Of a DNA stretch of 57,800 nucleotides, positions 13,560 to 26,033 are shown one piece after another. This DNA comes from an uncultured Gammaproteobacteria bacterium (GTDB lineage Bacteria; Patescibacteriota; Patescibacteriia; Magasanikbacterales; UBA922). The position numbers and the translations under genes were made by a program. The notes below the pieces were generated by a model. That model made no database searches and was not told where the DNA came from. It was given only the letters and a program-made list of their open reading frames with translations. The stretch lies in NCBI GenBank assembly GCA_964433095.1, contig CAYSPW010000004.1, positions 1 through 57,800 of the forward strand, in the 5' to 3' direction. Numbering within the stretch: position 1 is the first letter of the stretch; every line of letters begins with the position of its first letter.

Positions 13560-14027
13560 TCAATTCAATAAAAAGATGTACAGGTTTAATACAGTGGCAA
13601 AACTAACCCAGAACAAGTAGGGTACCAGCAGCCACCCGGCCACCCGGCTTATCTTTTCAAACATCCAAATCAAAACCAGAATAAACAGCCAAATGATAAT
13701 AATATTTACAAAAGCCAAGCCCGGCATTCGCAGACCGAAAAATATAATTGACCAGCCGGCATTAAACAGCAAGTGGATCCAAAAAAGATTAACCGCCGGT
13801 TTGACCTTTTTTTCTTGCCTACGTTTACTCCAGACTAAATAGACACTGATACCCATCAAAATATAGAGGGTAATCCATACCGGTCCAAACAACCACCCCG
13901 GTGGCGTGATAGCCGGCTTGTCCAGCGCGGCATACCAGCCGCCTACGGCCGGGGCGGTAAACAAGGAACCGATCAATCCGGCAAGCTGCGGTGCTATCAA
14001 GGAGATTAGCAGTTTATGATAGTTCAT
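13560..14027 (-). CDS. tspO: TspO/MBR family tryptophan-rich sensory protein
   Basis: 155 aa; WYAALDKPAITPPGWLFGPVWITLYILMG...FNAGWSIIFFG is typical of TspO. Confidence 0.85.
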   Translation of the reverse strand: MNYHKLLISLIAPQLAGLIGSLFTAPAVGGWYAALDKPAITPPGWLFGPVWITLYILMGISVYLVWSKRRQEKKVKPAVNLFWIHLLFNAGWSIIFFGLRMPGLAFVNIIIIWLFILVLIWMFEKISRVAGWLLVPYLFWVSFATVLNLYIFLLN

Positions 14028-14118: not shown

Positions 14119-15066
14119 TTATTTTTTCGATTTCATTTCAATCGGCGGCATATTTACTATTCCCAAAGTGGCCGAAGCGATTTTTACTTTGTCTGATTTC
14201 AACAAGATGGCGAGCAATTTTTGACTCAAAATATTATGAACCGATCTCCTTTCCCTGACTTCGGTAATATAGCGTACATGTATTTCTATCCAGTTGTCGG
14301 TCATGGTGACAAAGGCTTCCGGCTCAATGGTTTTTTTCTCCACAAAATATTTTCTCCTCAGTTTTTTAAAATCTTTCTCGGCCATTAGCACCGTTTGATT
14401 GGTTTCGGTCTTGACTATTTTCAAAATATTGCGCGTGGCCACTTGCCAGTCACTGTCATAAGTGATCGGAATGAATATTTCATCCCAGATAAAACCGTGA
14501 TCTTCGGTATAATTGTTTACATTTTTTGTCAGCACCGTTCCATTTGGTATCTTGACTATGCGACCGGTGGGCTGGTCCCCGCTTACCCATTCTTTAATTT
14601 CCAAAATAGTTGTATAGAGAATACCGGTGTCAATCACATCTCCGTACTTGCCGTCCAGTTCTATTCTGTCTCCCACTTTGTACAAACTGTTGATGATAAT
14701 TAAAAGGCCGCCGATAAAATTCTTGAAAAAATCCTGTAAAGAAATGGTCACGCCGGCGGCGATCAAACCGTACGAAACCAACAAAGTCTGCGGATCTTCT
14801 ATCCAAATTCTGATGCCTACCGCCAATATCACCACGAAAAACAGTATGTTTATTATTTTCTTAAAAGAATATCTTAATTTGTAATCCTTGATTCGCTTAC
14901 CAACTATGCCGTTTAAGAAAACAATGAACAAAGCGTAAAGCAAAACCAAAACCAATGCCGAAGTCAACAATCTTTGCACATTATCATTGGGATAGATGTG
15001 GTTGAGATACCACAGTAGGCCGCTTCCCACCAGCAGTATGATAAAATTGACGATTTTTTTACTCAT
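14119..15066 (-). CDS. mechanosensitive ion channel, MscS family
   Basis: LYKVGDRIELDGKYGDVIDTGILYTTI...GRIVKIPNGTVLTKNVNNYT. Start chosen at MSKKIV (the ORF extends to 15132). Confidence 0.8.
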   Translation of the reverse strand: MSKKIVNFIILLVGSGLLWYLNHIYPNDNVQRLLTSALVLVLLYALFIVFLNGIVGKRIKDYKLRYSFKKIINILFFVVILAVGIRIWIEDPQTLLVSYGLIAAGVTISLQDFFKNFIGGLLIIINSLYKVGDRIELDGKYGDVIDTGILYTTILEIKEWVSGDQPTGRIVKIPNGTVLTKNVNNYTEDHGFIWDEIFIPITYDSDWQVATRNILKIVKTETNQTVLMAEKDFKKLRRKYFVEKKTIEPEAFVTMTDNWIEIHVRYITEVRERRSVHNILSQKLLAILLKSDKVKIASATLGIVNMPPIEMKSKK

Positions 15067-15112
15067 ATCTTCCGCTATTATACCACACAAAAGATAATCG
15101 AAACAATAAATT

Positions 15113-15343
15113 TCAATCCTCCGTAATTTCAATTCCCCGTTCGTCCATCAGCTCCCGCAAGATGTCGTACATGGCCCGGATATTGGGAGCCATCACACTA
15201 TCAAGATCAAACTCGGTAAAAATACCAAGCTCATGATCACGCAGTCTCCTTTTGTAGTCGTCCATGATATTGGGATAGCGCTCCAAAATTTTGCTGATGA
15301 AACTCTTCATTCGCGCCTCGCCAGGGTGGTTGTTTTGCCGCAT
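15113..15343 (-). CDS. small hypothetical protein
   Basis: 76-aa ORF co-oriented with its neighbours; no recognisable motif. Confidence 0.4.
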   Translation of the reverse strand: MRQNNHPGEARMKSFISKILERYPNIMDDYKRRLRDHELGIFTEFDLDSVMAPNIRAMYDILRELMDERGIEITED

Positions 15344-15820: not shown

Positions 15821-16759
15821 TTAATTCGGCTTTGAAAAAAGAACGGTGAAATAGCTGGTGGAATTGGGCTGTTTTTTTTTCAAATAACGACCCGAATTGG
15901 TATGCCTGAGAATTTCCGCTTGACCGGCTCCGATCTGATCCATGCTGCGCAAAAAAACGAAAAGCGCGGACGGCGCGTCAATGTAGGAATTATCAAAAGT
16001 CAAGATCAAATCATAGTTGCGGTCCAGAATAGCTTGCCAGGTAATTTGATCTCTTTGCTCGGCTTCAAGATCACTCAAGTAATGTGAAAAGTCGAATGAG
16101 CCGATAATCAAAGTATTGTCCGCCCGAGCGAATTCGGCCAATTCTGAAGCCAGCTTTTCCAAATGATCAGTATCTTTGTTGTTGGTAATAACCAAGGGAA
16201 CGATATCAGCCTCGGAAAAATAGTGGGAAATGAAAGCTACTGTGGTTTTAATCGAATGTTCGGGAATGAAATTATCATTATCAAAAACCACCAAGCCTCG
16301 CTCAACCAATTGATCCAGCTTCTCATAATCGTTCTTGACAGTTCCGAACGGTGTTCGCCAGTCCACTCGGCCGCTGATCACCGTTTCCAGTCCCCGCCCG
16401 GCATGGTTGGGACCCAAAATTATTATGGTTTGCGGATTCTCAGTCCGCTTGAGTCGAACAAACAATTCGGCCATATACTCGGATACCAAATCATGATGCG
16501 GAATTATACCACCGTAAATTTTCTTAAGCTCTTCTGAATAATATTTTTGTTCCTTTTCCACGGCCGAATAAAATAACTCCCAGTTGTAATCCAGATCTAC
16601 AGTTTTAGCCCCAACGCCAACAGACCGTGTTTCAATAATATGATCACTGGCAAACCCTGATTTAATTCCTCCCCAACGATTCAACAGTAAAAACACCGCC
16701 AAGCCTATCAAGCCGATGACGGTGATTTTTAATATATTTTTTCCCGGTTTACTCAACAT
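15821..16759 (-). CDS. Memo-like / AmmeMemoRadiSam system protein B family, with N-terminal TM anchor
   Basis: GGIIPHHDLVSEYMAELF...IIILGPNHAGRG...GSFDFSHYL. N-terminal ILKITVIGLIGLAVFLLL. The ATG overlaps the stop of the giant gene by 11 nt. Confidence 0.7.
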   Translation of the reverse strand: MLSKPGKNILKITVIGLIGLAVFLLLNRWGGIKSGFASDHIIETRSVGVGAKTVDLDYNWELFYSAVEKEQKYYSEELKKIYGGIIPHHDLVSEYMAELFVRLKRTENPQTIIILGPNHAGRGLETVISGRVDWRTPFGTVKNDYEKLDQLVERGLVVFDNDNFIPEHSIKTTVAFISHYFSEADIVPLVITNNKDTDHLEKLASELAEFARADNTLIIGSFDFSHYLSDLEAEQRDQITWQAILDRNYDLILTFDNSYIDAPSALFVFLRSMDQIGAGQAEILRHTNSGRYLKKKQPNSTSYFTVLFSKPN

Positions 16760-19700
16760 TTTGTATGGTTATTCTACCGGCATCGGAGTAATTGATAATG
16801 TCTTGACTGTTCACCGACTGGATAACCGCCGGCTCAACCGTAAACTCTCCCAGTGAATTGACGCGCGCGTAATAGCTCCTGGTTGAACAATGACTGTTCT
16901 TGTATACGTTGACTTTTATCACGTTGTTGCGGCTTTGATATGGATAAATACTGCAATTATCGTAGCCGGCTTCACTTCTGTGGGCAGAGTGCTTGATAAT
17001 GCTCAAACCACTCGGCAGAATATCAGTGACCGTATAGGCGCCATCAATCGAGGCCGGGTCAATATATGGATCAAGCACGATCTGAACCACGTCATCTTCC
17101 TTGAACGAATTTGTTTCTTGACCATCCACCAAGTATTTCTTCCCAATGGAGGCATAGCTGTTCGGCCCCCGTCTCTGATCGATTTGTTCGGGAACGTCGA
17201 AATATGACACCGTGACTCCGACTTTGCCATCCACTTGCTCAACTGTCATTTTTTCATATTGTTCCGGTGTGATGGACAAGGCAAAAGTCCGTCCTTTTTC
17301 CATTTGTCTTTCAATCCGCTTACCGTCAATGGTCAAAGTAAAACTGACCGAACCCGGCTTCAGATGCTTCAATCCCTGCTTGATATACAGCAACTCTTCC
17401 AAATTTAGCAGAATCTCTTTGGTGTAATTTTTTTGCACGTAATTCCACAGTCTCTCATGATAAGAACTGTTTAGACCGGCGGCCAAATTGGCGGCGAGCG
17501 ACGTGGCGGACAGAATCTCATCCGAATTATCGTTCGGTTTAACGCGCGCCATGCTCTCAAATTCTTCGCCATGATCTTGCAATAATTGATTGAGTATATC
17601 ACGCGCCAATTCGGCGTCGCCCAACTTCTCGGCCGCGAGAGCCACGTACAACCTGTTCTTAACCGATAAATCTTCCCTTTCGGCCAGCTTGCGCACCGGG
17701 TACAAAACCGGTTCTTCCAAGGCGGACAGGCCGTACAGTGACAACGCCGCTTCATCTTGATTCAAATCGGTTTGATTGTAAAAACCGTAAAAATAGTTTG
17801 CCAAAGCGTTCCGGTCAAAAAAGCCGGGCACCAAAGCGGCCACTTTGGCCGATAATTCAAAGTCGGAATCGGCATAGGGCAGCAAGGCGATGCCGCCATC
17901 TTGCATTTGGAATAAATCTTTGTCAATTTCTTCTCGTTTGAATTTTTGTTCATCAAAATATATTTCTTTGTATCGCTCGGCCAAAACGCGCGCCAGCTTC
18001 TGATCAATCCTCTCTCCCCACGTCCAGCCCAGACTGGTCAATCGATTGTAAAATTTGCCCTGACTTTGATCAGAGAAAATCATTTTAAATCTACCTTCCG
18101 GCACAACGGTTAACTCAAGATCCTTGCTTAAATTGTAAAAATCGGTATATTCTTTTTTCAACCTGGAATCGATCACCGATATCGGCTTCACTACCAAATC
18201 GCCACCCGCTTCGGCTTGCACGGAATGGTAGAGAGGAAACACTCCCTTTCTCAGGCTGCCCAGGTTGAAATACTCGGGCACGTATGCTTGTCCGGATCGC
18301 TTCTCCTTCACGCCCAGATTTTCCACACTCAAAGAAAAATCTACTTTGTCTCCCTGCTTGAGCGCATTGCCGTAGGCTCTTAATTTTACTATCGGCTTAT
18401 CGCTTGTCAGATATTCGTCCGCGTAAGTACCGAGCACGAAAACCGGCTTGCTCACTTTGATATTGCCGGTAGACTGTCCGGCCAGCAATGATTTGCTTAC
18501 CGCTTTGGCGTTTATGCGCCAAGAAGTGAAGTTGTCCGGCAATTTGAAGGTGACTTCCCCCCGTCCATTGTCATCGGTGCGGCCGGAAAAGAATAACGCC
18601 GTATCCCTGAAATCCACTCTGGCTCCACCTTTTTCATTATGCACATATATTCCATTAGCCAGATAGGTATGGTAATTCTCAATGTGAAAGTTAAATACCG
18701 CCACCGTTTTGTCTACTTTTTCAATGCTTTGAATACGCACGTAATCACCAGACTCATTCAGCATAAAGTCGCCCACCTTTGCTTGACCGATCATCTGCCA
18801 GCCGTCGTTGATAAAAAATCTGTGTTCCGGAGTTACTTTTATGGAATCGTTTATTACGATATACCCGGGTACAACATGCTGAAAGGTTTCCACCACTTTT
18901 GCCTTGATTAATTTCTTTGTACGCGACGAATCATAGGTCGCGATTTCATCACCGACCACTATGTCTTGGATATTTTTTACACTGCCATCCGCCATGGTTA
19001 TCTTGGTACCGGCCAAAAAGCAGCCGGCTCCGCCTTCAGCTCCGCCTTGATCAAACTTTGGTTTTTCGTGCGAGCCGTATGTAAAAATTTCTCCGCCTTC
19101 CACGGTCCGGTACAAATCAACAAGCACTCCACTGTTATAATCTTCCCTGATCTTGTACAATGCTTCGTCAACCAAACTGATATTAAATCCGGATCTTACT
19201 CCTTTCCCCTCTCGGTCTTTTACGCTGATGTGCAAAGTGGCTTCCTGTCCGGGCTTGTAAGCTTGTTTATCGCTGGACACTTCAATCGTCAATTCGCGAT
19301 CATTTTCGGCCACTTTTATAATATAGCCGCTATCCGAAGAAGCATACCATCGATTTTCATAGGTGGAATGAAAAGTATCTCCGTCAAACCACACTCCTTT
19401 GAGCCTTAAATTCGGCATGTCTTGCTCGGAAAACTTAAAGCCGTATTGCGAATCCGCACTGACCCGGAAGTCGCGCAAACCGCGCTGCATTTTTAAATAA
19501 AGGAAATCGTTTTTGCTGGTTTCGGCCAATTGCTCTCCGTTATTGACAAACCCGACCTTGACCTGTTCTCCAATGGAATACTCATTTAAATCCTTGTCAT
19601 CGGTCGTTTGCTTATCTTTTATCTCCAGCTCATAAAAATCATTGTCAAAGTCGGACTTATAACGGGAATAATACACGGACGTGAAGAAACTCCTGCCGCG

Positions 19701-22349
19701 AGTGTCTCGAGCAAAAACCTTGATTCGGTAATTCTTGTCTTTATCGAGATTAAATTGGTGCCGATGTTCGCCATTTCCGCCGGTATTACCACTGTATTCG
19801 CCCACTTTGTTTTTATAACTATGGTATGAGTACCTCTTGCGTGTCAGCTTATTGATAAAATCGTAGTATGTGCCAATTTCCTGCTTCTCGTATCCGACCT
19901 CATATATCTCGGCTCTAAAATCAACATCGGTCCTTACCGGTCCGTGGTAATCATAATATATATTACCCTCACCGCCGTTGATCTTGTCAAAATTAAAATA
20001 CTCAAATTTGGTCGTTATTTCCGCACTGTCGTCGTCCAGTTCGTTCACTCGGACAGAGCCTAAGGTATCAAAACGAGCCACCACTACTCTGGTGCTGCCG
20101 CTCACTTCTCCCAACTCGGCTTTGGTCGGATATGCTTTAATGGTTCTGTGTGATACGCTTTGACAATAATTGCTTGATTTGGAACAATTACCCTCCAATG
20201 TGCCGATACCGGCCGAAGCCTCGCCCTGCTTATCGGTTATGACGTTTTTTCCATCAACCGACAGATCCAAATACGGTACCGGCGTGCCTTCAAAAAAAGA
20301 AGTTTCTAATTTCAAGTTAATATCTTCACCGCCGTAAACCGCGTATTTTTCCGGCGTTACTTCAATTTGGTATTCGGGCTTGAAATAGTCCTGCACCTCA
20401 ATGTATTCACGATTCACGAATTGATCGCCCGCGTATAGTTCGACGAAATAATATCCGCTCTTCAAATCTCGCAATTCAAATTCCGCGGAAAAGGTGCCAC
20501 CGGCGTCAAGCTCCACTTTTTCCTGTTGCAAAACAAGCGGTTCCAGATAATAATTGCGGTATTCATTTTTTACCAGCTTCAGTGATATGTCTTCATTTTC
20601 CAAACTCCGACCATCGCGATCCTGCAAAAATCCCCACAAGCGCACGGTATCATCGGTTCGGTAAACCGAACGGTCTTTTTTCAAAAGCACCCAATAGCTA
20701 CTCTTGCTTTCTTTGCTGCCGCCAAGCGAAAACAATGCCCGTTCCGAACCATGCTCAACAATAATGCTATCTTTAACTTTTTGGTCAATCTCGTCATAAT
20801 AGTTCACTTCAACCGTTTTCAATTCGTCAGTATCAAACACGACCAATCCTTCCCGATCCGAACTGAATTCACGGCCGCTCCCGGCCAATTTCACCGTGGC
20901 CCCGTCAATGGAAGCACCGGTTTGAATGTCTTTGAGCCAAACCAAAGTCCGGTCTTGCAACACATTGATGTATGCCGCTATATCGGACACCTGAAAAAAA
21001 GCTTGTTCGATTCGATCATCCGGAGTTCGCACTTCCAAAGCGTAAAAACCCACATCCAAGCTCTCGGGTAAAACCAAGTACTTGCTGTAGCCTGACTCTG
21101 ACTCTGTCGTACTCATCTCGGTTTCCATCACTTTGGACGCTCCGCCCAGATCAACCGTCGCCCTCGAACTCTGGTACGAAGCCCATTCTGGAATTTCCGC
21201 TTTTTTTTCGATCAAGGATCGGTAATTTTCCAACCCTCCCAAGTTATATACCGCCACTTGGTATTTAGTCCGGCTACCGTTTCCGTATTCATATACCTGA
21301 AAGTAAGGGGTTGTCCGGGGAGAAAATTCTCCGTAATTTTTACTGATGCCAAAACTTCGGTAGGGAGAATCGTCTTCATCTCTTTTGGTTTCAAACTGAA
21401 AAACAAAATCACGGTCCAATCGTTCATCCGAATTCTCAATGGGCAAATCTTGATCAACGGTCACCGTATAAACGGTGCCGGGCTGCAGTTGATCGGGAAC
21501 CAAAACCAAAGTGCGCCCGTGCTTCTCAAATTTATATTTCACGGCCGGCACAATGGAGACGTGTTTTTCAAAATTATGATAGCCTTCATGGCTGAAATAT
21601 ATCTCTATGCCCATGTTGGTCGGCACTCCATCAACTTGGTCGCGCGGCAGAGTGCCGTAAATTTTAAAGCGGTCTTTTACTTGAAAAGCCCAGGAATAAT
21701 CGCGTTCAACGGTCAAACCCCGGGAATTGATGTACGCGGAGTTGATTTTTAAATTGTAAACTGTTCTGTCTTGTAAAGTCTGTTTGGGCGTGACTTTGAA
21801 TTCCTGGCCGCTCACCACTTCAAAATCAAATTCCGACTCCGGGCTGAGTGTAATATTCTTTCTAAGCAAATCCGGGTCTTCAATTACGTCTTTGCTTTTG
21901 ATCATAAAAGCGGTATCGCTTTCCACGCCCAAAGAATCGGACGCGGTCGCTTCCACGGAAAAATTATCCTCGGCATAAACCGGATCAATAAGCAATTTGG
22001 AAAAATCATCAAAAGGTCCGCCCATGCTCGGTCGCCAGATATAAATGCTTGAGAGCACCACCAGAATAACTAAAGCCACGATGGCCACCGGCACCATTCT
22101 CTTTGGCCGGAACAACGCTTTGATGGAAGCGATGTTTAAACTCGGTTGTTTCATAATAATTTCTTGTTTGCGCCTTTTCTCCAGTATTTGTTTTTTAAGA
22201 GATTGTTTAAACTGTTGAGAAGCAGGCTGTGAATTAAAAACTCCTTGCTTGAGAATGTCCTCTGTTTCTTTTAACGCCGGCGGCGCCGAATTATTACGTT
22301 TTTTGTCTTTTTTCAGAAAATTAAACATATTATTTTTCGCTATTTTCAT
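16749..22349 (-). CDS. giant single-pass membrane protein, alpha-2-macroglobulin-like (MG-domain) ectodomain with embedded Hint domain; candidate anti-sigma factor
   Basis: 1866 aa with a TM helix at aa 85-105. A2M-type motifs: EYIEVQDYFKPEYQIEV, NISLVDEALYKI, VDFRDTALFFSGRTDDNGRGEVTFKLPDNFTSWRINAKA. No CxEQ thioester motif. An alternative start (M8) lies at 22328. Confidence 0.8.
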   Translation of the reverse strand: MKIAKNNMFNFLKKDKKRNNSAPPALKETEDILKQGVFNSQPASQQFKQSLKKQILEKRRKQEIIMKQPSLNIASIKALFRPKRMVPVAIVALVILVVLSSIYIWRPSMGGPFDDFSKLLIDPVYAEDNFSVEATASDSLGVESDTAFMIKSKDVIEDPDLLRKNITLSPESEFDFEVVSGQEFKVTPKQTLQDRTVYNLKINSAYINSRGLTVERDYSWAFQVKDRFKIYGTLPRDQVDGVPTNMGIEIYFSHEGYHNFEKHVSIVPAVKYKFEKHGRTLVLVPDQLQPGTVYTVTVDQDLPIENSDERLDRDFVFQFETKRDEDDSPYRSFGISKNYGEFSPRTTPYFQVYEYGNGSRTKYQVAVYNLGGLENYRSLIEKKAEIPEWASYQSSRATVDLGGASKVMETEMSTTESESGYSKYLVLPESLDVGFYALEVRTPDDRIEQAFFQVSDIAAYINVLQDRTLVWLKDIQTGASIDGATVKLAGSGREFSSDREGLVVFDTDELKTVEVNYYDEIDQKVKDSIIVEHGSERALFSLGGSKESKSSYWVLLKKDRSVYRTDDTVRLWGFLQDRDGRSLENEDISLKLVKNEYRNYYLEPLVLQQEKVELDAGGTFSAEFELRDLKSGYYFVELYAGDQFVNREYIEVQDYFKPEYQIEVTPEKYAVYGGEDINLKLETSFFEGTPVPYLDLSVDGKNVITDKQGEASAGIGTLEGNCSKSSNYCQSVSHRTIKAYPTKAELGEVSGSTRVVVARFDTLGSVRVNELDDDSAEITTKFEYFNFDKINGGEGNIYYDYHGPVRTDVDFRAEIYEVGYEKQEIGTYYDFINKLTRKRYSYHSYKNKVGEYSGNTGGNGEHRHQFNLDKDKNYRIKVFARDTRGRSFFTSVYYSRYKSDFDNDFYELEIKDKQTTDDKDLNEYSIGEQVKVGFVNNGEQLAETSKNDFLYLKMQRGLRDFRVSADSQYGFKFSEQDMPNLRLKGVWFDGDTFHSTYENRWYASSDSGYIIKVAENDRELTIEVSSDKQAYKPGQEATLHISVKDREGKGVRSGFNISLVDEALYKIREDYNSGVLVDLYRTVEGGEIFTYGSHEKPKFDQGGAEGGAGCFLAGTKITMADGSVKNIQDIVVGDEIATYDSSRTKKLIKAKVVETFQHVVPGYIVINDSIKVTPEHRFFINDGWQMIGQAKVGDFMLNESGDYVRIQSIEKVDKTVAVFNFHIENYHTYLANGIYVHNEKGGARVDFRDTALFFSGRTDDNGRGEVTFKLPDNFTSWRINAKAVSKSLLAGQSTGNIKVSKPVFVLGTYADEYLTSDKPIVKLRAYGNALKQGDKVDFSLSVENLGVKEKRSGQAYVPEYFNLGSLRKGVFPLYHSVQAEAGGDLVVKPISVIDSRLKKEYTDFYNLSKDLELTVVPEGRFKMIFSDQSQGKFYNRLTSLGWTWGERIDQKLARVLAERYKEIYFDEQKFKREEIDKDLFQMQDGGIALLPYADSDFELSAKVAALVPGFFDRNALANYFYGFYNQTDLNQDEAALSLYGLSALEEPVLYPVRKLAEREDLSVKNRLYVALAAEKLGDAELARDILNQLLQDHGEEFESMARVKPNDNSDEILSATSLAANLAAGLNSSYHERLWNYVQKNYTKEILLNLEELLYIKQGLKHLKPGSVSFTLTIDGKRIERQMEKGRTFALSITPEQYEKMTVEQVDGKVGVTVSYFDVPEQIDQRRGPNSYASIGKKYLVDGQETNSFKEDDVVQIVLDPYIDPASIDGAYTVTDILPSGLSIIKHSAHRSEAGYDNCSIYPYQSRNNVIKVNVYKNSHCSTRSYYARVNSLGEFTVEPAVIQSVNSQDIINYSDAGRITIQNVE
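18636..19022 (-). other. Hint / bacterial intein-like (BIL) domain, aa 1110-1238 of the giant protein
   Basis: CFLAGTKITMADGSVKNIQDIVVGDEI (block A), VTPEHRFF (TxxH), VFNFHIENYHTYLANGIYVHN (blocks F/G), followed by Glu. Coordinates checked in frame with the ORF start. Confidence 0.8.
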
Positions 22350-22908
22350 AATTTTTGTAAACTAAAGCGAATTTTTTCAATGCCCGATGCAGCAGCACTC
22401 CCGCGTTATTGGACGTTATTCCCATCACCTCGGCTATTTCTTTATTATCCAATTCGGCGAAAAACTTCAATTGCAGAATCTTTTGATGTTTGACTTTCAA
22501 ATCCTTTATGGCCAACCGCACCAGCTCGGCCTGCTGCCGGCTCACGGCCTGCCGCTCCGGCGAATCGGCATCGTCGCTTACATGGCTGACGCTTTTAATG
22601 TCCACCTCTCTTTTTCTGCCTTGCTTACGGTAATAATCAATCAAATTGTTATTAGCTATGGTATAAAGCCAGGAAGAAAAACCGCCTTTTTTTGTATTGT
22701 AGTCGCCCAACGCGCAAAAAGCTTTCATAAAAGTCTTTGACACTATATCCTCGGCTTCTTCCCGATTGCCGGTACGTTTGAAGACAAATCCGTAAATTCT
22801 GGGAAAATAGTGGTTATAAAGAATTTCAAAACAGGCATCATCATTTTTTGCTGTTTCCACCATAACGGCTTCATTTTCCAAAATATTGTTTGCGGTGCTT
22901 GCCTCCAT
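22330..22908 (-). CDS. ECF-type sigma-70 family RNA polymerase sigma factor
   Basis: Region 2 (FEILYNHYFPRIYGFVFKRTGNREEAEDIVSKTF) and region 4 HTH (LDNKEIAEVMGITSNNAGVLLHRALKKF). The stop overlaps or abuts the giant gene start. Confidence 0.85.
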   Translation of the reverse strand: MEASTANNILENEAVMVETAKNDDACFEILYNHYFPRIYGFVFKRTGNREEAEDIVSKTFMKAFCALGDYNTKKGGFSSWLYTIANNNLIDYYRKQGRKREVDIKSVSHVSDDADSPERQAVSRQQAELVRLAIKDLKVKHQKILQLKFFAELDNKEIAEVMGITSNNAGVLLHRALKKFALVYKNYENSEK

Positions 22909-23023
22909 AAACTTCAACGAATTGAATTGGAATTCATTACAATTAAATTATATCAATTATACTCCTTTCCACGGGGTCGTTCAATTTTGACCGCCGGTAA
23001 GCAGCGTGCTAACATACAGGTAC

Positions 23024-23638
23024 ATGCAAACACTAAAACAATTGGTACAATCCATGAGGAAAAAAGGCATACCGCGCCATAGATCAATAAAAGATGCGTT
23101 TTTGAACATTGACCGCAAAAATTTTGTATTGGACAAATATACGGACTCGGCTTATGAAGACCGGCCATTGCCCATCGGCAAAGGGCAAACCATATCCCAG
23201 CCCTCAACCGTGGCCTTCATGCTGGAACTGCTCCGGGTCAAATCCGGTCATAAGATATTGGATATCGGCAGCGGCTCGGGCTATACCACCGCTCTGCTTG
23301 CCTATCTGGCCGGGGACAAAGGCAAAGTCTGGGCCGTGGAAAGAGTGGCGGCCCTGAGAGAACAAGCCCGAAAAAACCTGTCCGCCTATCCGAGCCTGAA
23401 TTACGAACTGCTGGCGGCCGGAAAAAAAATCGGTCTGCCCGGAAACAAGTTTGACCGTATTTTGGTATCGGCCGCGGCCGATGAACTGCCCAAGGAACTG
23501 TTGTCTCAGCTGGACAGCCCGGGAAGATTGGTAATTCCGATTCATGATTCCGTGTATCTCTACCACAAAGACTCAAAAGGCAATCTCAAAGCGGAAAAAC
23601 ACTACGGCTTCAGCTTTGTGCCGCTGATTGAGGAATAA
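23024..23638 (+). CDS. pcm: protein-L-isoaspartate O-methyltransferase
   Basis: GKGQTISQPSTVAFMLELL and ILDIGSGSGYTTALLA. Confidence 0.88.
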   Translation: MQTLKQLVQSMRKKGIPRHRSIKDAFLNIDRKNFVLDKYTDSAYEDRPLPIGKGQTISQPSTVAFMLELLRVKSGHKILDIGSGSGYTTALLAYLAGDKGKVWAVERVAALREQARKNLSAYPSLNYELLAAGKKIGLPGNKFDRILVSAAADELPKELLSQLDSPGRLVIPIHDSVYLYHKDSKGNLKAEKHYGFSFVPLIEE

Positions 23639-23772: not shown

Positions 23773-25794
23773 TCAATTACTGACCTGAATCTGTTCGCCT
23801 TCTTCCGGCCGGCAGGCCACAACCGTAATTTTTCTATCACCAAATTCTTTTTTTACCGCGTAATATGTTCTTTCCGGACTACCATAATGAGGATCATAAG
23901 GGATTTTACTTAAATATTTTGTCACCAGCTCTTCGGATAAATCCAAACACTCATCAGATATTATCACCTCGGCGTCTTGACTGCCGGTACCCCAAAAAGA
24001 AAAATCATACAATTCCCAAAAAAATCCGTGATTGGCGTAATTGGTATAAAATCTGACTCTGGCTTGAGTAATATTTCCTTCACTATAACTATATTCCACC
24101 CATTGCCTGTCTGAAAAAGCTCCTTGGTACACGTCCTCCCAAACACCGTCCTTGTAAACGTCCACGTCCACGGCGTTTGATTCGCTGTTATACAAAGCGT
24201 ATATTCTTAATTTATTGGAATTAATACCCGGATGATTGAAATATACAAAAGAACTCCATTGGGGATCACCAATGTTATGATAGCTGCGGCCGAAGGTGGT
24301 CGTATCATCGTCCATTATATCGGCCTCGGATTCCCATTTGTTACTGGGATCGGAATAAGTCGTAGGTAGGGTCCAGCCGATACCCTCCTCTTCGGTAGTG
24401 AATTCTTGATCGGAACAATTGACCGTGCCGACCGAATTTTTTAATTGCGCTCTGAAGTGATAGCCGGTCATGCCGCTTAAACCGGTAATCGACTGCTTGA
24501 ACACCTCACCACTGACCTTGCCGCTTTCCCAGCCGGTATTTTGACTATAGTTTGAGGTCAATCCGTATTGAAATCTATACTGATTCGGTTCGCCGCCATC
24601 GTCTATCACCTGGCCTTGCAGCAGAGCTGAATTAGCTCTGATGGCCGTGGCAGGCTTGGAACCGCATTGCGGCAGACCGATAGTTGAAGAGGCTTGATAG
24701 AATTGCAATTCAAAAAACCAATAATAGTATCCGGAAACTTTATAATTATACCTGAACCTGGCTTTCTCCACTTGACCTTTACCGTAAGTAAGCTCAATCC
24801 ACTGCACGTTCCAATCTTCTTCATTACCACCCTGAAAAACATCCTGCCACGCACCGTCCGTATACACATCAACGTCCACCTCTTCAATATGAGCGTCCAA
24901 ATAATCAACGTTCAAGCGCAGCCGATCTGACGTAATCGGACTGTCTAAAGTCAAAACCAAATACTGTCCCCAGCCGCTGCCGCCATATTGATTGGTGGCG
25001 TAAGTGCCCGTGTTGTCATCAAAGGCGTTCGTTTCGTTTACCCACTGATTGCCCGGATCTTCAAAACCGGTCGGATTAACCCAGCCGGATGAAGGCGGAT
25101 CCCACCAAAAAATATCACGAGTGGCCGATCGTCCGGCATGATTTCGCGCTTCAATTCTGGTGACATATCTTTTATCAACAGTATCATGAACCCGCCAAGC
25201 GGCCCGCCACGTACCGTTGTTTTCATCGCCCCGGATCAAATCAAGCTCAATTTTTTCCAGACTGCCCATATCGGCGCTGACATGATCCACACCGTATTTA
25301 TCCTCAATCTCCACTTCTACCGTTAAAATATCTCCGGGAATTACCTTGCTGGGAAAAGCTCTGGCGCTTTTGATCAGAGGCTCATCCCCCGGCGGTCGCT
25401 CTTTTTGCCGCTTATCAGATACGGCGTGAACAGTACTCTTTCTCTTTAAATATTGTTTAACGCGCTCAACCAAATTATCATTACCACTATGGAGCTGAAC
25501 CAAATTGCCGCAAGTGACGGCACAGCCCGAAGTGGCCGTGCCAAGCATTCTCAAAGCGCCGTCCAGCTCGGGTATTTCGGTATTGTTTTCTATGGTGTAT
25601 AGATTGATTGCTTTCAATATATTATCAATGTCCATATATCTTTGCGCGTTTCTGCTATCGGCAAATCTTTGAATGGGTTTTAAAGAAATTAAAACTATCA
25701 CCGCCAGCACGGCAATTACGGTTATTACCAACAAAAGTTCAATTAAGGTAAATCCTTTTCCGTTTAAATTATTTTTTTTAAAAAAATCTATCAT
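23773..25794 (-). CDS. type IV pilin-like protein with a very large globular insertion
   Basis: Prepilin signal with G|FTLIELLLVITVIAVLAVIVL; pilin-like C-terminal strands. The insertion holds two homologous ~130-aa modules and an FN3-like segment. Confidence 0.8.
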   Translation of the reverse strand: MIDFFKKNNLNGKGFTLIELLLVITVIAVLAVIVLISLKPIQRFADSRNAQRYMDIDNILKAINLYTIENNTEIPELDGALRMLGTATSGCAVTCGNLVQLHSGNDNLVERVKQYLKRKSTVHAVSDKRQKERPPGDEPLIKSARAFPSKVIPGDILTVEVEIEDKYGVDHVSADMGSLEKIELDLIRGDENNGTWRAAWRVHDTVDKRYVTRIEARNHAGRSATRDIFWWDPPSSGWVNPTGFEDPGNQWVNETNAFDDNTGTYATNQYGGSGWGQYLVLTLDSPITSDRLRLNVDYLDAHIEEVDVDVYTDGAWQDVFQGGNEEDWNVQWIELTYGKGQVEKARFRYNYKVSGYYYWFFELQFYQASSTIGLPQCGSKPATAIRANSALLQGQVIDDGGEPNQYRFQYGLTSNYSQNTGWESGKVSGEVFKQSITGLSGMTGYHFRAQLKNSVGTVNCSDQEFTTEEEGIGWTLPTTYSDPSNKWESEADIMDDDTTTFGRSYHNIGDPQWSSFVYFNHPGINSNKLRIYALYNSESNAVDVDVYKDGVWEDVYQGAFSDRQWVEYSYSEGNITQARVRFYTNYANHGFFWELYDFSFWGTGSQDAEVIISDECLDLSEELVTKYLSKIPYDPHYGSPERTYYAVKKEFGDRKITVVACRPEEGEQIQVSN

Positions 25795-26033
25795 TAGCAA
25801 CGACTAATATATTATTGCCAAACAAAAAATCATGCTTTCACCAGATATTATACATCAAATCGAAAAAAAAAAGAAAGAACCGCCTTTTTGATCATTTACT
25901 CAAAAAATCTTGAACGGTCAATAAAAAAAATCGGGGCGGTATCGATTTAAAAAAAACAACAAACCGACATTGGCAAATTAAATTATTGATTGATTGGCGA
26001 CAGCTTGCGAGTTTTTCTGTGTATTTAAAACAT

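Follow-up and report, generated by a model that had tools for sequence, protein, structure and literature searches.

What would a self-processing domain be doing inside the bait loop of an alpha-2-macroglobulin (A2M)-like surface protein, the place where proteins of the A2M/thioester-containing protein (TEP) superfamily are proteolytically activated? This question is raised by a 57,800-nucleotide stretch of DNA (the window; positions 1 to 57,800 of contig CAYSPW010000004.1, GenBank assembly GCA_964433095.1), deposited as an uncultured Gammaproteobacteria bacterium and placed by GTDB in the Patescibacteriota (Magasanikbacterales, UBA922). An 1866-residue reading frame of the window carries a Hint domain, which an initial annotation, made from the sequence alone, took to replace or occupy the bait of an A2M-like protein. 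The analysis described here locates the domain in the bait-equivalent loop of an A2M/TEP-fold protein that has no thioester, recovers the same arrangement in at least 172 clusters of homologs, and makes autoprocessing of the loop, mainly by cleavage and in the manner of bacterial intein-like (BIL) domains, about an even prospect. The features on which this rests are the following:

16749..22349, minus strand: membrane-anchored A2M-like open reading frame of 1866 aa, which carries the Hint insert
19023..19073, minus strand: N-side flexible linker HEKPKFDQGGAEGGAG, aa 1093-1109, with Gly at -1 and a predicted local distance difference test score (pLDDT) below 50 (model residues 193-209)
18636..19022, minus strand: Hint/type-A BIL-like domain, aa 1110-1238 (129 aa); Cys1110 codon at 19022-19020, Asn1238 codon at 18638-18636
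18822..18833, minus strand: block B TPEH, aa 1173-1176, read from the sequence (family consensus vTpeH)
18633..18635, minus strand: +1 residue Glu1239, a non-nucleophile, followed by KGG, read from the sequence

A start at Met8, as in the database entry P0001 (1859 aa), would lower every residue number by 7.

Read on the minus strand, positions 18636-19022 translate as CFLAGTKITM...VTPEHRFF...NGIYVHN (129 aa), with GGAEGGAG on the N-terminal side and EKGGARVDFRDTALFF on the C-terminal side; reading the plus strand here instead meets a stop and reveals no Hint motif. The catalytic set consists of Cys1110, T1173-P-E-H1176 and the terminal His1237-Asn1238. PT-HINT was the best-scoring Pfam model, matching the whole protein with 44.2 bits (E 3e-11) and the isolated segment with 48.9 bits against a cut-off of 27.7, and the isolated segment also exceeded the cut-offs of Intein_splicing (36.5 bits; cut-off 35.8) and of the NCBIfam models intein_Nterm (25.9; 24.5) and intein_Cterm (20.1; 15.6). 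A phmmer search of PDB sequences returned 2LWY, a "bacterial intein-like domain", as the top match (E 3e-11; E 1e-18 with the family profile), and RecA and DnaB mini-inteins were detectable relatives that ranked behind it. The AlphaFold2 model, described below, folds the Hint domain well, with pLDDT block means of 82-95, and gives pLDDT values below 50 to the 17 residues before Cys1 and the 3 residues after Asn. These profile and structure-database matches bear out the initial assignment of a Hint/BIL domain with a full catalytic set: judged by its motifs and closest matches, the insert is best taken as a Hint domain of the type-A BIL kind that has been domesticated, of mini-intein size and with no homing endonuclease or remnant of one.

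Type-A BIL domains end in His-Asn, have no +1 nucleophile and yield mainly N- and C-cleavage products (PMC4031507, PMC7664689). They are nevertheless able to ligate their flanks by aminolysis, although cleavage dominates (PMC4031507), and a single mutation at +1 turns BILs into efficient splicers (PMC7664689, PMC4031507). The statement in the initial annotation that Glu at +1 excludes splicing consequently stands for the canonical mechanism but not for the aminolytic ligation of which type-A BILs are capable.

The nearest relatives of this Hint domain outside A2M-like proteins (~40-45% identity) occur in proteins with 2-10 tandem Hint domains arranged head to tail (P0093, P0097, P0109, P0127, P0153, P0171, P0205, P0207 and others), the junctions of which resemble GG|CF…LVHN|KGG|CF…. 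Because the same KGG trails the Hint domain in both settings, the comparison points to a common origin of the tandem Hints and the Hint of the A2M-like family.

The host protein was delimited by the following features on either side of the insert:

21387..21668, minus strand: Big_5 bacterial Ig-like domain, aa 228-321 (Pfam, 44.1 bits)
20430..20678, minus strand: macroglobulin (MG) domain MG2, aa 558-640 (Pfam, 41.3 bits; family profile against ECAM 154-487)
19152..19592, minus strand: homology to A2M_BRD (bait-region domain, BRD), first part of the split bait-bearing MG domain, aa 920-1066 (Pfam, 36.5 bits; profile against ECAM 815-875 and C5 540-611)
18435..18581, minus strand: post-bait A2M homology with the FKLPDNFTSWRINAKA motif, aa 1257-1305 (Pfam A2M, 33.9 bits)
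17370..18062, minus strand: helical domain resembling the thioester domain (TED) but without a thioester, aa ~1430-1660 (AlphaFold2 helices at model residues 530-760; Foldseek A2M/TEP matches)
18000..18011, minus strand: RIDQ where classical A2Ms have the thioester motif CxEQ, aa 1447-1450, with Arg for Cys (by alignment)

An AlphaFold model of aa 901-1866, built from a 57-sequence alignment (mean pLDDT 86.5; predicted template modelling score, pTM, 0.69), orders this part of the protein as beta domains, Hint, more beta domains, the helical TED-like domain and C-terminal beta domains. Foldseek matched the model to ECAM, Salmonella A2M (SaA2M), CD109, A2ML1, C3/C4/C5 and TEP1 (E 1e-31 to 1e-19), and the family profile independently found ECAM/YfhM and Salmonella A2M (E 1e-24 to 1e-21) as well as human A2M, CD109, C4, C5 and TEP1. 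Pfam, profile and Foldseek results together thus recover the MG, BRD, CUB, TED and C-terminal MG domains of the A2M/TEP superfamily fold. The thioester motif of classical A2Ms, C[TSV]EQ, aligns with R-[IVL]-D-Q, with Arg in place of Cys in the Hint-bearing and Hint-less members aligned. CxEQ was found at the thioester position in 0/79 family members, the lone CKEQ (P0029, residue 721) lying far from the TED. As had been surmised, the host combines an A2M/TEP fold with the loss of the thioester, and since Hint-less relatives carry Arg at that position too, this loss is older than the Hint domain.

The model of aa 901-1866 superposes better on protease- or methylamine-activated A2M-family structures (TMq 0.39-0.43 for 4RTD, 4ZIQ, 9FX3, 6TAV, 7O7P and 7Q60; lower, 0.33, for the TEV-conjugated A2ML1 7Q61) than on native ones (TMq 0.26-0.28 for 5A42, 4U48, 8S3O, 7VON and 7Q1Y). 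This better fit may be a modelling bias, or may reflect a thioester-less protein that rests in a compact state.

The position of the insert was defined with a MAFFT alignment of 79 family members, 54 of which carry the Hint domain and 25 of which do not. The interval around the insert measures 176-186 residues in 54/79, 48-58 in 21/79 and 77-98 in 4/79, which resolves into a clean 129-aa insertion/deletion: Hint-bearing members read …AE.GG|CF…(129-130 aa)…VHN|(D/E/Q)KGG.R..F.D.A.F…, while the 25 Hint-less relatives bear a short, mostly Gly-rich loop there (…GGAE.GGG-GDGGGR..F.D.A.F…) and keep the AE.GG motif too. Four Hint-less members (P0068, P0071, P0072 and P0073) have a low-complexity, Ala/Pro/Ser-rich stretch of 25-40 aa exactly at the Hint insertion point, from which it follows that the site is an insertion hot spot; the loop of these four looks, from its composition, like a conventional protease bait. 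Alignments to known structures bracket the site from both sides. ECAM 815-875 and C5 540-611 (the beta part of MG6) align just before it, ECAM 936-997 matches profile positions 1212-1274 just beyond it, and profile positions 1192-1271, which begin in the last residues of the Hint, align with human A2M 721-804. The disordered bait of ECAM spans Arg923-Leu942 (PMC4498604), and in human A2M the bait-region domain sits in MG6, with region IV (Glu729-Arg732) as the trigger that is freed by cleavage (PMC9181621). The profile alignment and the model agree, therefore, that the Hint domain occupies the bait-equivalent loop of the A2M/TEP fold, between disordered Gly-rich linkers, and that this site, homologous to the A2M bait by the bracketing alignments, holds a Gly-rich linker and a Hint domain rather than a multi-protease bait.

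This placement upholds the central structural claim of the initial annotation with one change. The flanks had been described as MG6, bait and MG7; the site is indeed bait-equivalent, but the alignment of the post-insert segment with the re-entry segment of human A2M, together with its secondary structure, indicates that it probably completes the same split bait-bearing MG domain instead of starting MG7. Because the two sides of the insert would share one split MG domain, fragments could stay associated after cleavage, and the release of the C-terminal 628 aa that had been envisaged is not implied.

Whether this arrangement is a peculiarity of one genome or a property of a family was addressed with two homolog sets. 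The first contained 54 Hint-bearing members. A HMMER census of 1.84 billion cluster representatives with aa 1040-1320 as the query gave 426 hits at E <= 1e-30, and counts from the best 150 of the 426 added 118 members that were new relative to the first set, each with the pre-flank, one Hint domain and the post-flank, for a total of at least 172 Hint-bearing clusters (54 + 118). Cys1 and the terminal His-Asn were each present in 54/54 and 118/118 members (172/172), block-B Thr and His were essentially invariant over the 172 clusters, Gly stood at -1 in 161/172 (52/54 and 109/118) and Lys at +2 in 144/172 (49/54 and 95/118). The +1 residue was distributed as D26 E18 Q7 A2 S1 in the first set and D52 E19 Q17 A13 S9 N3 T2 K2 I1 in the census, giving D78, E37, Q24, A15, S10, N3, T2, K2 and I1 overall; thus, Asp, Glu, Gln or Ala occupies +1 in 154/172 clusters, Ser or Thr in 12/172 (~7%) and Cys in 0/172, the residue being non-nucleophilic in 160/172. 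With 172 independent clusters, an assembly error at the +1 Glu, against which the initial annotation had cautioned, is ruled out.

The Hint domain is 127-130 aa long throughout (129 aa in 101/118 census members), and its columns, together with the adjoining post-bait domain, form the best-conserved region of the protein, with a pairwise identity of 0.49 in Hint columns versus 0.35 in the host. Hint and host distances are correlated (r 0.77; Mantel 0/2000) with a divergence slope of 0.80, the Hint evolving more slowly than a host whose p-distance reaches 0.77 within the family, and the neighbour-joining (NJ) tree of the Hint recovers the host clades. The GC content of the Hint, overall and at third codon positions (GC3), lies inside the gene's own range; these values and the congruent trees rule out a foreign or recently acquired element. 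A Hint-negative clade (P0044/45/48/54) is nested in the Hint-positive crown in 96/100 NJ bootstraps, and the remaining Hint-negative lineages lie within the span of all Hint-positive ones. By this nested position at least one Hint-less clade is a secondary clean loss, and the simplest history that the trees allow is one ancient gain of the Hint followed by several clean losses. Named source taxa are mostly members of the Candidate Phyla Radiation (CPR)/Patescibacteria (Magasanikbacteria, Uhrbacteria, Peregrinibacteria), and the closest relative of the window's protein, at 67% identity, comes from a Magasanikbacteria metagenome-assembled genome; homologs are named in databases by automatic annotation, some of them at NCBI as "polymorphic toxin-type HINT domain-containing protein". 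On the pattern of conservation and descent, the Hint domain in the bait loop is not a one-off or a stray intein but a vertically inherited trait of a large family.

The mechanism favoured here, with about as much confidence as doubt, is BIL-type self-processing by the Hint domain, mainly through cleavage, within the bait-equivalent loop of an A2M-like surface protein that is anchored in the membrane and has no thioester. After export and folding, Cys1110 would attack the Gly1109 carbonyl, and this N-S acyl shift would yield a thioester, while cyclisation of Asn1238 would break the Asn1238-Glu1239 bond. With no +1 nucleophile, the main outcome would be excision of the 129-aa Hint and a cut chain, leaving a membrane-anchored N-fragment (aa 1-1109), the free Hint domain and a C-fragment (aa 1239-1866) that starts EKGGARVDF…; a minor share of ligation by aminolysis would be possible. 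As both fragments would contribute to the split MG domain, they would probably remain in non-covalent contact, much as the C3/C4/C5 beta and alpha chains do by way of the MG6 that they share. The cysteines of the protein are at 722, 729, 1110, 1799 and 1821, and besides Cys1110 only the putative disulfide pairs 722/729 and 1799/1821 are available, so that no cysteine pair obviously bridges the N- and C-fragments. The C-terminal scissile bond would lie ~5 residues before the segment aligned with the human A2M trigger, and because the new N-terminus would arise near the trigger equivalent, self-cleavage would mimic bait cleavage without a protease, as a built-in activation or maturation step.

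Several observations argue for cleavage as the predominant outcome. Invariant catalytic residues, a near-fixed length and conservation of Hint columns above that of the host are best explained by selection on the catalytic apparatus. Furthermore, since +1 is rarely Ser/Thr and never Cys, even though one +1 mutation suffices in BILs, there appears to be no selection for efficient splicing. Cleavage is favoured because a +1 nucleophile has never been fixed and because the domain has been retained at near-fixed length in an indel-tolerant loop, where it evolves more slowly than its host. Other considerations weigh on the opposite side. Sequence by its nature cannot separate cleavage, ligation and inactivity. 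Repeated clean losses of the Hint that leave the loop intact and the sigma factor and Memo partners (described below) in place are what a ligated mature chain would lead one to expect, and so favour splicing, and a self-removing passenger would also be expected to conserve its catalytic residues. Finally, the association of fragments and an A2M-like conformational change are extrapolated from homologs at only ~12% identity.

A bolder version of the cleavage proposal, which is doubtful, would treat the Hint domain as a built-in trigger: the protein would be a spring-loaded A2M-like sensor whose "bait" cuts itself, possibly only when the thioester is resolved, for example by an environmental nucleophile, a change of redox state or ligand binding. 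Cyclisation of Asn1238 would free the same new N-terminus as the protease does in classical A2Ms, and the readout could pass through the extracytoplasmic function (ECF) sigma factor and/or an extracytoplasmic Memo protein. In a stronger form still, the Gly1109 thioester would capture a target covalently, replacing the lost TED thioester.

The alternative that survives best, although it is somewhat unlikely, is BIL-type splicing, in which the alpha-amine of Glu1239 would attack the Gly1109 thioester and ligate the flanks, the mature chain would resemble the Hint-less relatives, and the Hint would be a long-resident, essentially neutral passenger. Type-A BILs with His-Asn can splice in the absence of a +1 nucleophile (PMC4031507), ligation is predicted to give a loop (…GGAEGGAG-EKGGAR…) close to the Hint-less one (…GGAEGGGG-GDGGGR…), the clean losses, whose nesting in the Hint-positive clade has bootstrap support, kept their sigma and Memo partners, and Ser/Thr does occur at +1 in a small share of members. 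Against this, cleavage products dominate in the characterised BILs, no Cys, Ser or Thr has been fixed at +1 over a deep divergence, and a useless passenger in a flexible Gly-rich loop could vanish by imprecise deletion, yet the domain is kept in at least 172 clusters with a nearly constant length and a rate of evolution below that of the host.

It is improbable that the domain acts through Hedgehog-like transfer, whereby an external nucleophile (for example a small molecule, an amine of the cell wall or a lysine on a protein that has been captured) would be joined to the C-terminus of the N-fragment and the Hint thioester would replace that of the TED. The GG|CF junction, with its prevalent Gly at -1, resembles the G|CF site of Hedgehog, and the TED thioester Cys has been replaced by Arg. 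In addition, Hint thioesters are chemically competent, and Hedgehog requires only the N-S shift for the addition of cholesterol (PMC7664689). Nevertheless, Hint-less relatives also have no thioester and persist, so that a replacement is not required; the invariant His-Asn indicates selected C-terminal cleavage, which pure transfer does not need, Hedgehog itself being without His-Asn; and the domain, mini-intein sized, has no adduct-recognition region of the sterol-recognition kind. The proposal in the initial annotation that the Hint thioester substitutes for the lost A2M thioester is therefore possible but not required. The Hint as a necessary compensation for thioester loss was ruled out, as Hint-less relatives likewise have Arg for Cys.

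A catalytically silent Hint fold, kept in the bait loop purely for structure or binding, is considered improbable to the same degree: no specific point favours it, and the essential invariance of Cys1, block-B Thr/His and His-Asn over the 172 clusters, with both junctions in flexible linkers, is hard to account for without catalysis. A canonical selfish class 1 mini-intein that splices by the standard four steps is very improbable, despite matches to intein N- and C-terminal splicing-region models and detectable kinship with RecA/DnaB mini-inteins. It is contradicted by the Glu at +1 and by the non-nucleophilic +1 residue of most clusters, by a length of 129 aa with neither a homing endonuclease nor a remnant, by insertion in a variable loop of an exported protein rather than in a conserved active site, and by vertical inheritance with congruent trees and a BIL as the best match. 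The canonical class 1 intein was accordingly rejected on its defining features, a +1 nucleophile and a conserved host site with sporadic horizontal spread. Least credible of all is a polymorphic-toxin PT-HINT that releases a C-terminal toxin cassette, for although PT-HINT is the best Pfam model and some homologs are so named at NCBI, the HINT of polymorphic toxins directly precedes a C-terminal toxin domain that varies (PMC3482391), whereas the C-terminal 628 aa of the present protein make up conserved CUB/TED-like/MG domains that Hint-less relatives also possess, and the next gene encodes Memo, with no immunity-like gene, so that this candidate was set aside for want of both a variable C-terminal toxin and a downstream immunity gene.

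The genomic setting of the A2M-like gene, which the initial annotation had not noticed, provides a possible function for its ectodomain. The features concerned are:

22330..22917, minus strand: ECF sigma factor gene, 195 aa (Pfam Sigma70_r2, 67 bits; Sigma70_r4_2, 39.8 bits; Sigma70_ECF)
22095..22349, minus strand: cytoplasmic N-terminal tail of the A2M-like protein, a putative anti-sigma segment, aa 1-85, Lys/Arg-rich, with helices predicted at aa 24-35 and 45-65 (AlphaFold2)
22038..22094, minus strand: single transmembrane helix of the A2M-like protein, aa 86-104 (hydropathy scan and AlphaFold2 helix)
15821..16759, minus strand: Memo-like protein of 312 aa with its own N-terminal membrane anchor (Pfam Memo, 115 bits)

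The TAA stop of the sigma gene (22332-22330) overlaps the A2M-like gene if the latter starts at the ATG at 22349, or ends 1 nt before the Met8 ATG at 22328, and the start of the Memo-like gene overlaps the A2M-like stop by 11 nt. The sigma gene is thus coupled translationally to the A2M-like reading frame. The AlphaFold2 model places a disordered stalk between the transmembrane helix and the ectodomain. Gene context was compared in 13 loci (L001-L013), the window included. Memo lies downstream in 11/13 of these, whatever the Hint or sigma status. An ECF sigma gene lies upstream in 7/7 loci whose protein has a tail of at least 73 aa (the window, P0002, P0016, P0047, P0045, P0030 and P0068) and in 0/6 loci with a tail of at most 38 aa (P0064, P0070, P0074, P0049, P0008 and P0031); for three of the five loci examined later this co-occurrence had been predicted beforehand, and all three predictions held. 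An anti-sigma role is suggested by this exact correspondence between long cytoplasmic tails and sigma genes. A Pfam search of the cytoplasmic tail of the window's protein gave no anti-sigma domain and no match; in the sigma-linked homolog P0068, the same ectodomain is joined to a canonical zf-HC2 anti-sigma domain (36.6 bits). The hallmarks of gene order and topology of a transmembrane anti-sigma factor, namely an adjacent co-oriented ECF sigma gene, N-in single-pass topology and a cytoplasmic N-terminal tail, are found in the window. Judged by gene order and topology, the protein is probably a transmembrane anti-sigma factor, for which the A2M-like ectodomain would probably be the sensor in the window and in the closest relatives. 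Such proteins may form a class of anti-sigma factors, not described before, that sense through A2M-like domains.

The Hint domain was present in five loci with the sigma link and in four without it, and proteins lacking the Hint likewise occurred in both kinds; its role therefore belongs to the A2M-like/Memo module and not to the link with sigma. The idea that the Hint domain provides the site-1 cleavage of an anti-sigma factor was weakened by the same distribution, the domain being found equally in tail-less and sigma-less members, as well as by its distance of ~1000 residues from the membrane.

Further observations were made on the neighbourhood of the module. L011 encodes Memo as a fusion with a PGA_cap domain, and L009 has a PGA_cap gene immediately upstream of sigma. 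A gene for protein-L-isoaspartate O-methyltransferase (PCMT) stands beside the module in the window (23006-23635, plus strand) and in the P0031 locus L013 (9202-9822, minus strand). PCMT repairs isoaspartyl residues, which form through succinimide intermediates (PMC3818261, PMC7859441). Cyclisation of the Hint Asn also yields a succinimide, which would tie it to PCMT, but the PCMT has no signal peptide, and its adjacency in 2/13 loci is probably a coincidence. The other neighbours in the window, all on the minus strand, are a protein of 675 aa whose N-terminus bears a methylation motif like that of type IV pilins (23773-25800), a TspO/MBR protein (13560-14027) and an MscS-type mechanosensitive channel (14119-15132), and these have no apparent link to the Hint finding.

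Neither Hint/BIL domains nor bacterial A2M-like proteins are new, but no prior description was found of a Hint domain fixed in a bait loop. In the library searched, no publication connected macroglobulins with Hint/BIL domains, or anti-sigma factors with A2M-like ectodomains, in keeping with the impression in the initial annotation that the architecture was undescribed. If self-processing is real, the family would provide a natural case of a self-processing domain recruited as an activation switch of the macroglobulin fold and a tractable system in which to ask what type-A BIL domains are for, a question as old as their discovery. It would also offer a first functional handle on a large and conserved ECF sigma/A2M-like/Memo surface module of CPR bacteria, the cell-surface biology of which is almost unknown, with natural Hint-bearing and Hint-less sister proteins as a ready comparison pair.

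Among known systems, complement C3 and C5 offer a parallel in layout: their split MG6 houses an anaphylatoxin domain, maturation cuts the chain at this place, and the two resulting chains share MG6. C3/C4/C5 and the present family thus have in common a whole domain at the equivalent place of a split MG6; they differ in that complement relies on external proteases (furin, convertases) and an interchain disulfide, whereas an autocatalytic cut is proposed here and no inter-fragment disulfide is apparent. With the bacterial A2Ms (type I, ECAM/YfhM and Salmonella A2M; type II, MagD/YfaS) the family shares the MG ring, bait-region domain, CUB, TED-like and C-terminal MG domains, and with type II also the want of a thioester (PMC5764988). 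It is distinguished from them by its N-terminal Big_5 domain, by a bait that is a short Gly-rich loop with or without a Hint, by sequence identity of only ~12%, and by an N-terminal transmembrane anchor, often with a cytoplasmic tail; bacterial A2Ms, YfhM for one, are annotated as lipoproteins (PDB titles), and no search was aimed at a lipoprotein signal sequence in the protein here. Partners differ as well: ECAM is functionally linked to Pbp1C (PMC4498604) and MagD is linked to the Mag complex (PMC5764988), whereas those found here are ECF sigma and Memo, neither pbpC nor mag/yfaTAQP genes standing beside the A2M-like gene in the window or the homolog loci.

Autoproteolytic transmembrane anti-sigma factors have precedents in RsgI/SEAL and FecR (PMC10328401, PMC10556640, PMC12036975), which resemble the present case as single-pass anti-sigma-like proteins beside an ECF sigma gene with a self-cleaving extracytoplasmic part, the latter being proposed here. 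The fold differs, as it is a Hint that also occurs in members without a sigma gene or tail, and because the Hint is so far from the membrane its own cut could not serve as the site-1 cleavage close to the membrane. Polymorphic-toxin PT-HINT domains (PF07591) are likewise Hint domains of Sec-exported proteins, autoproteolytic in the toxins; here, no toxin cassette or immunity gene follows, and the C-terminal part is that of a conserved A2M. The Hedgehog autoprocessing domain, whose scissile junction is Gly|Cys-Phe, shares both the Hint fold and that junction, but it is without the terminal His-Asn that is invariant here and carries a sterol-recognition extension that is absent here. It is also a precedent for a Hint thioester intermediate in an extracellular protein (PMC7664689). 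A further known system is that of the type-A BIL domains, with 2LWY as the best PDB match, with which the insert shares the Hint fold, N-terminal Cys, TxxH, His-Asn, the want of a +1 nucleophile and of a homing endonuclease, and residence in exported bacterial proteins at non-conserved sites; known here from its sequence, it differs from them as a single copy held at one fixed site, in the bait loop of one host family, and passed on vertically over at least 172 clusters.

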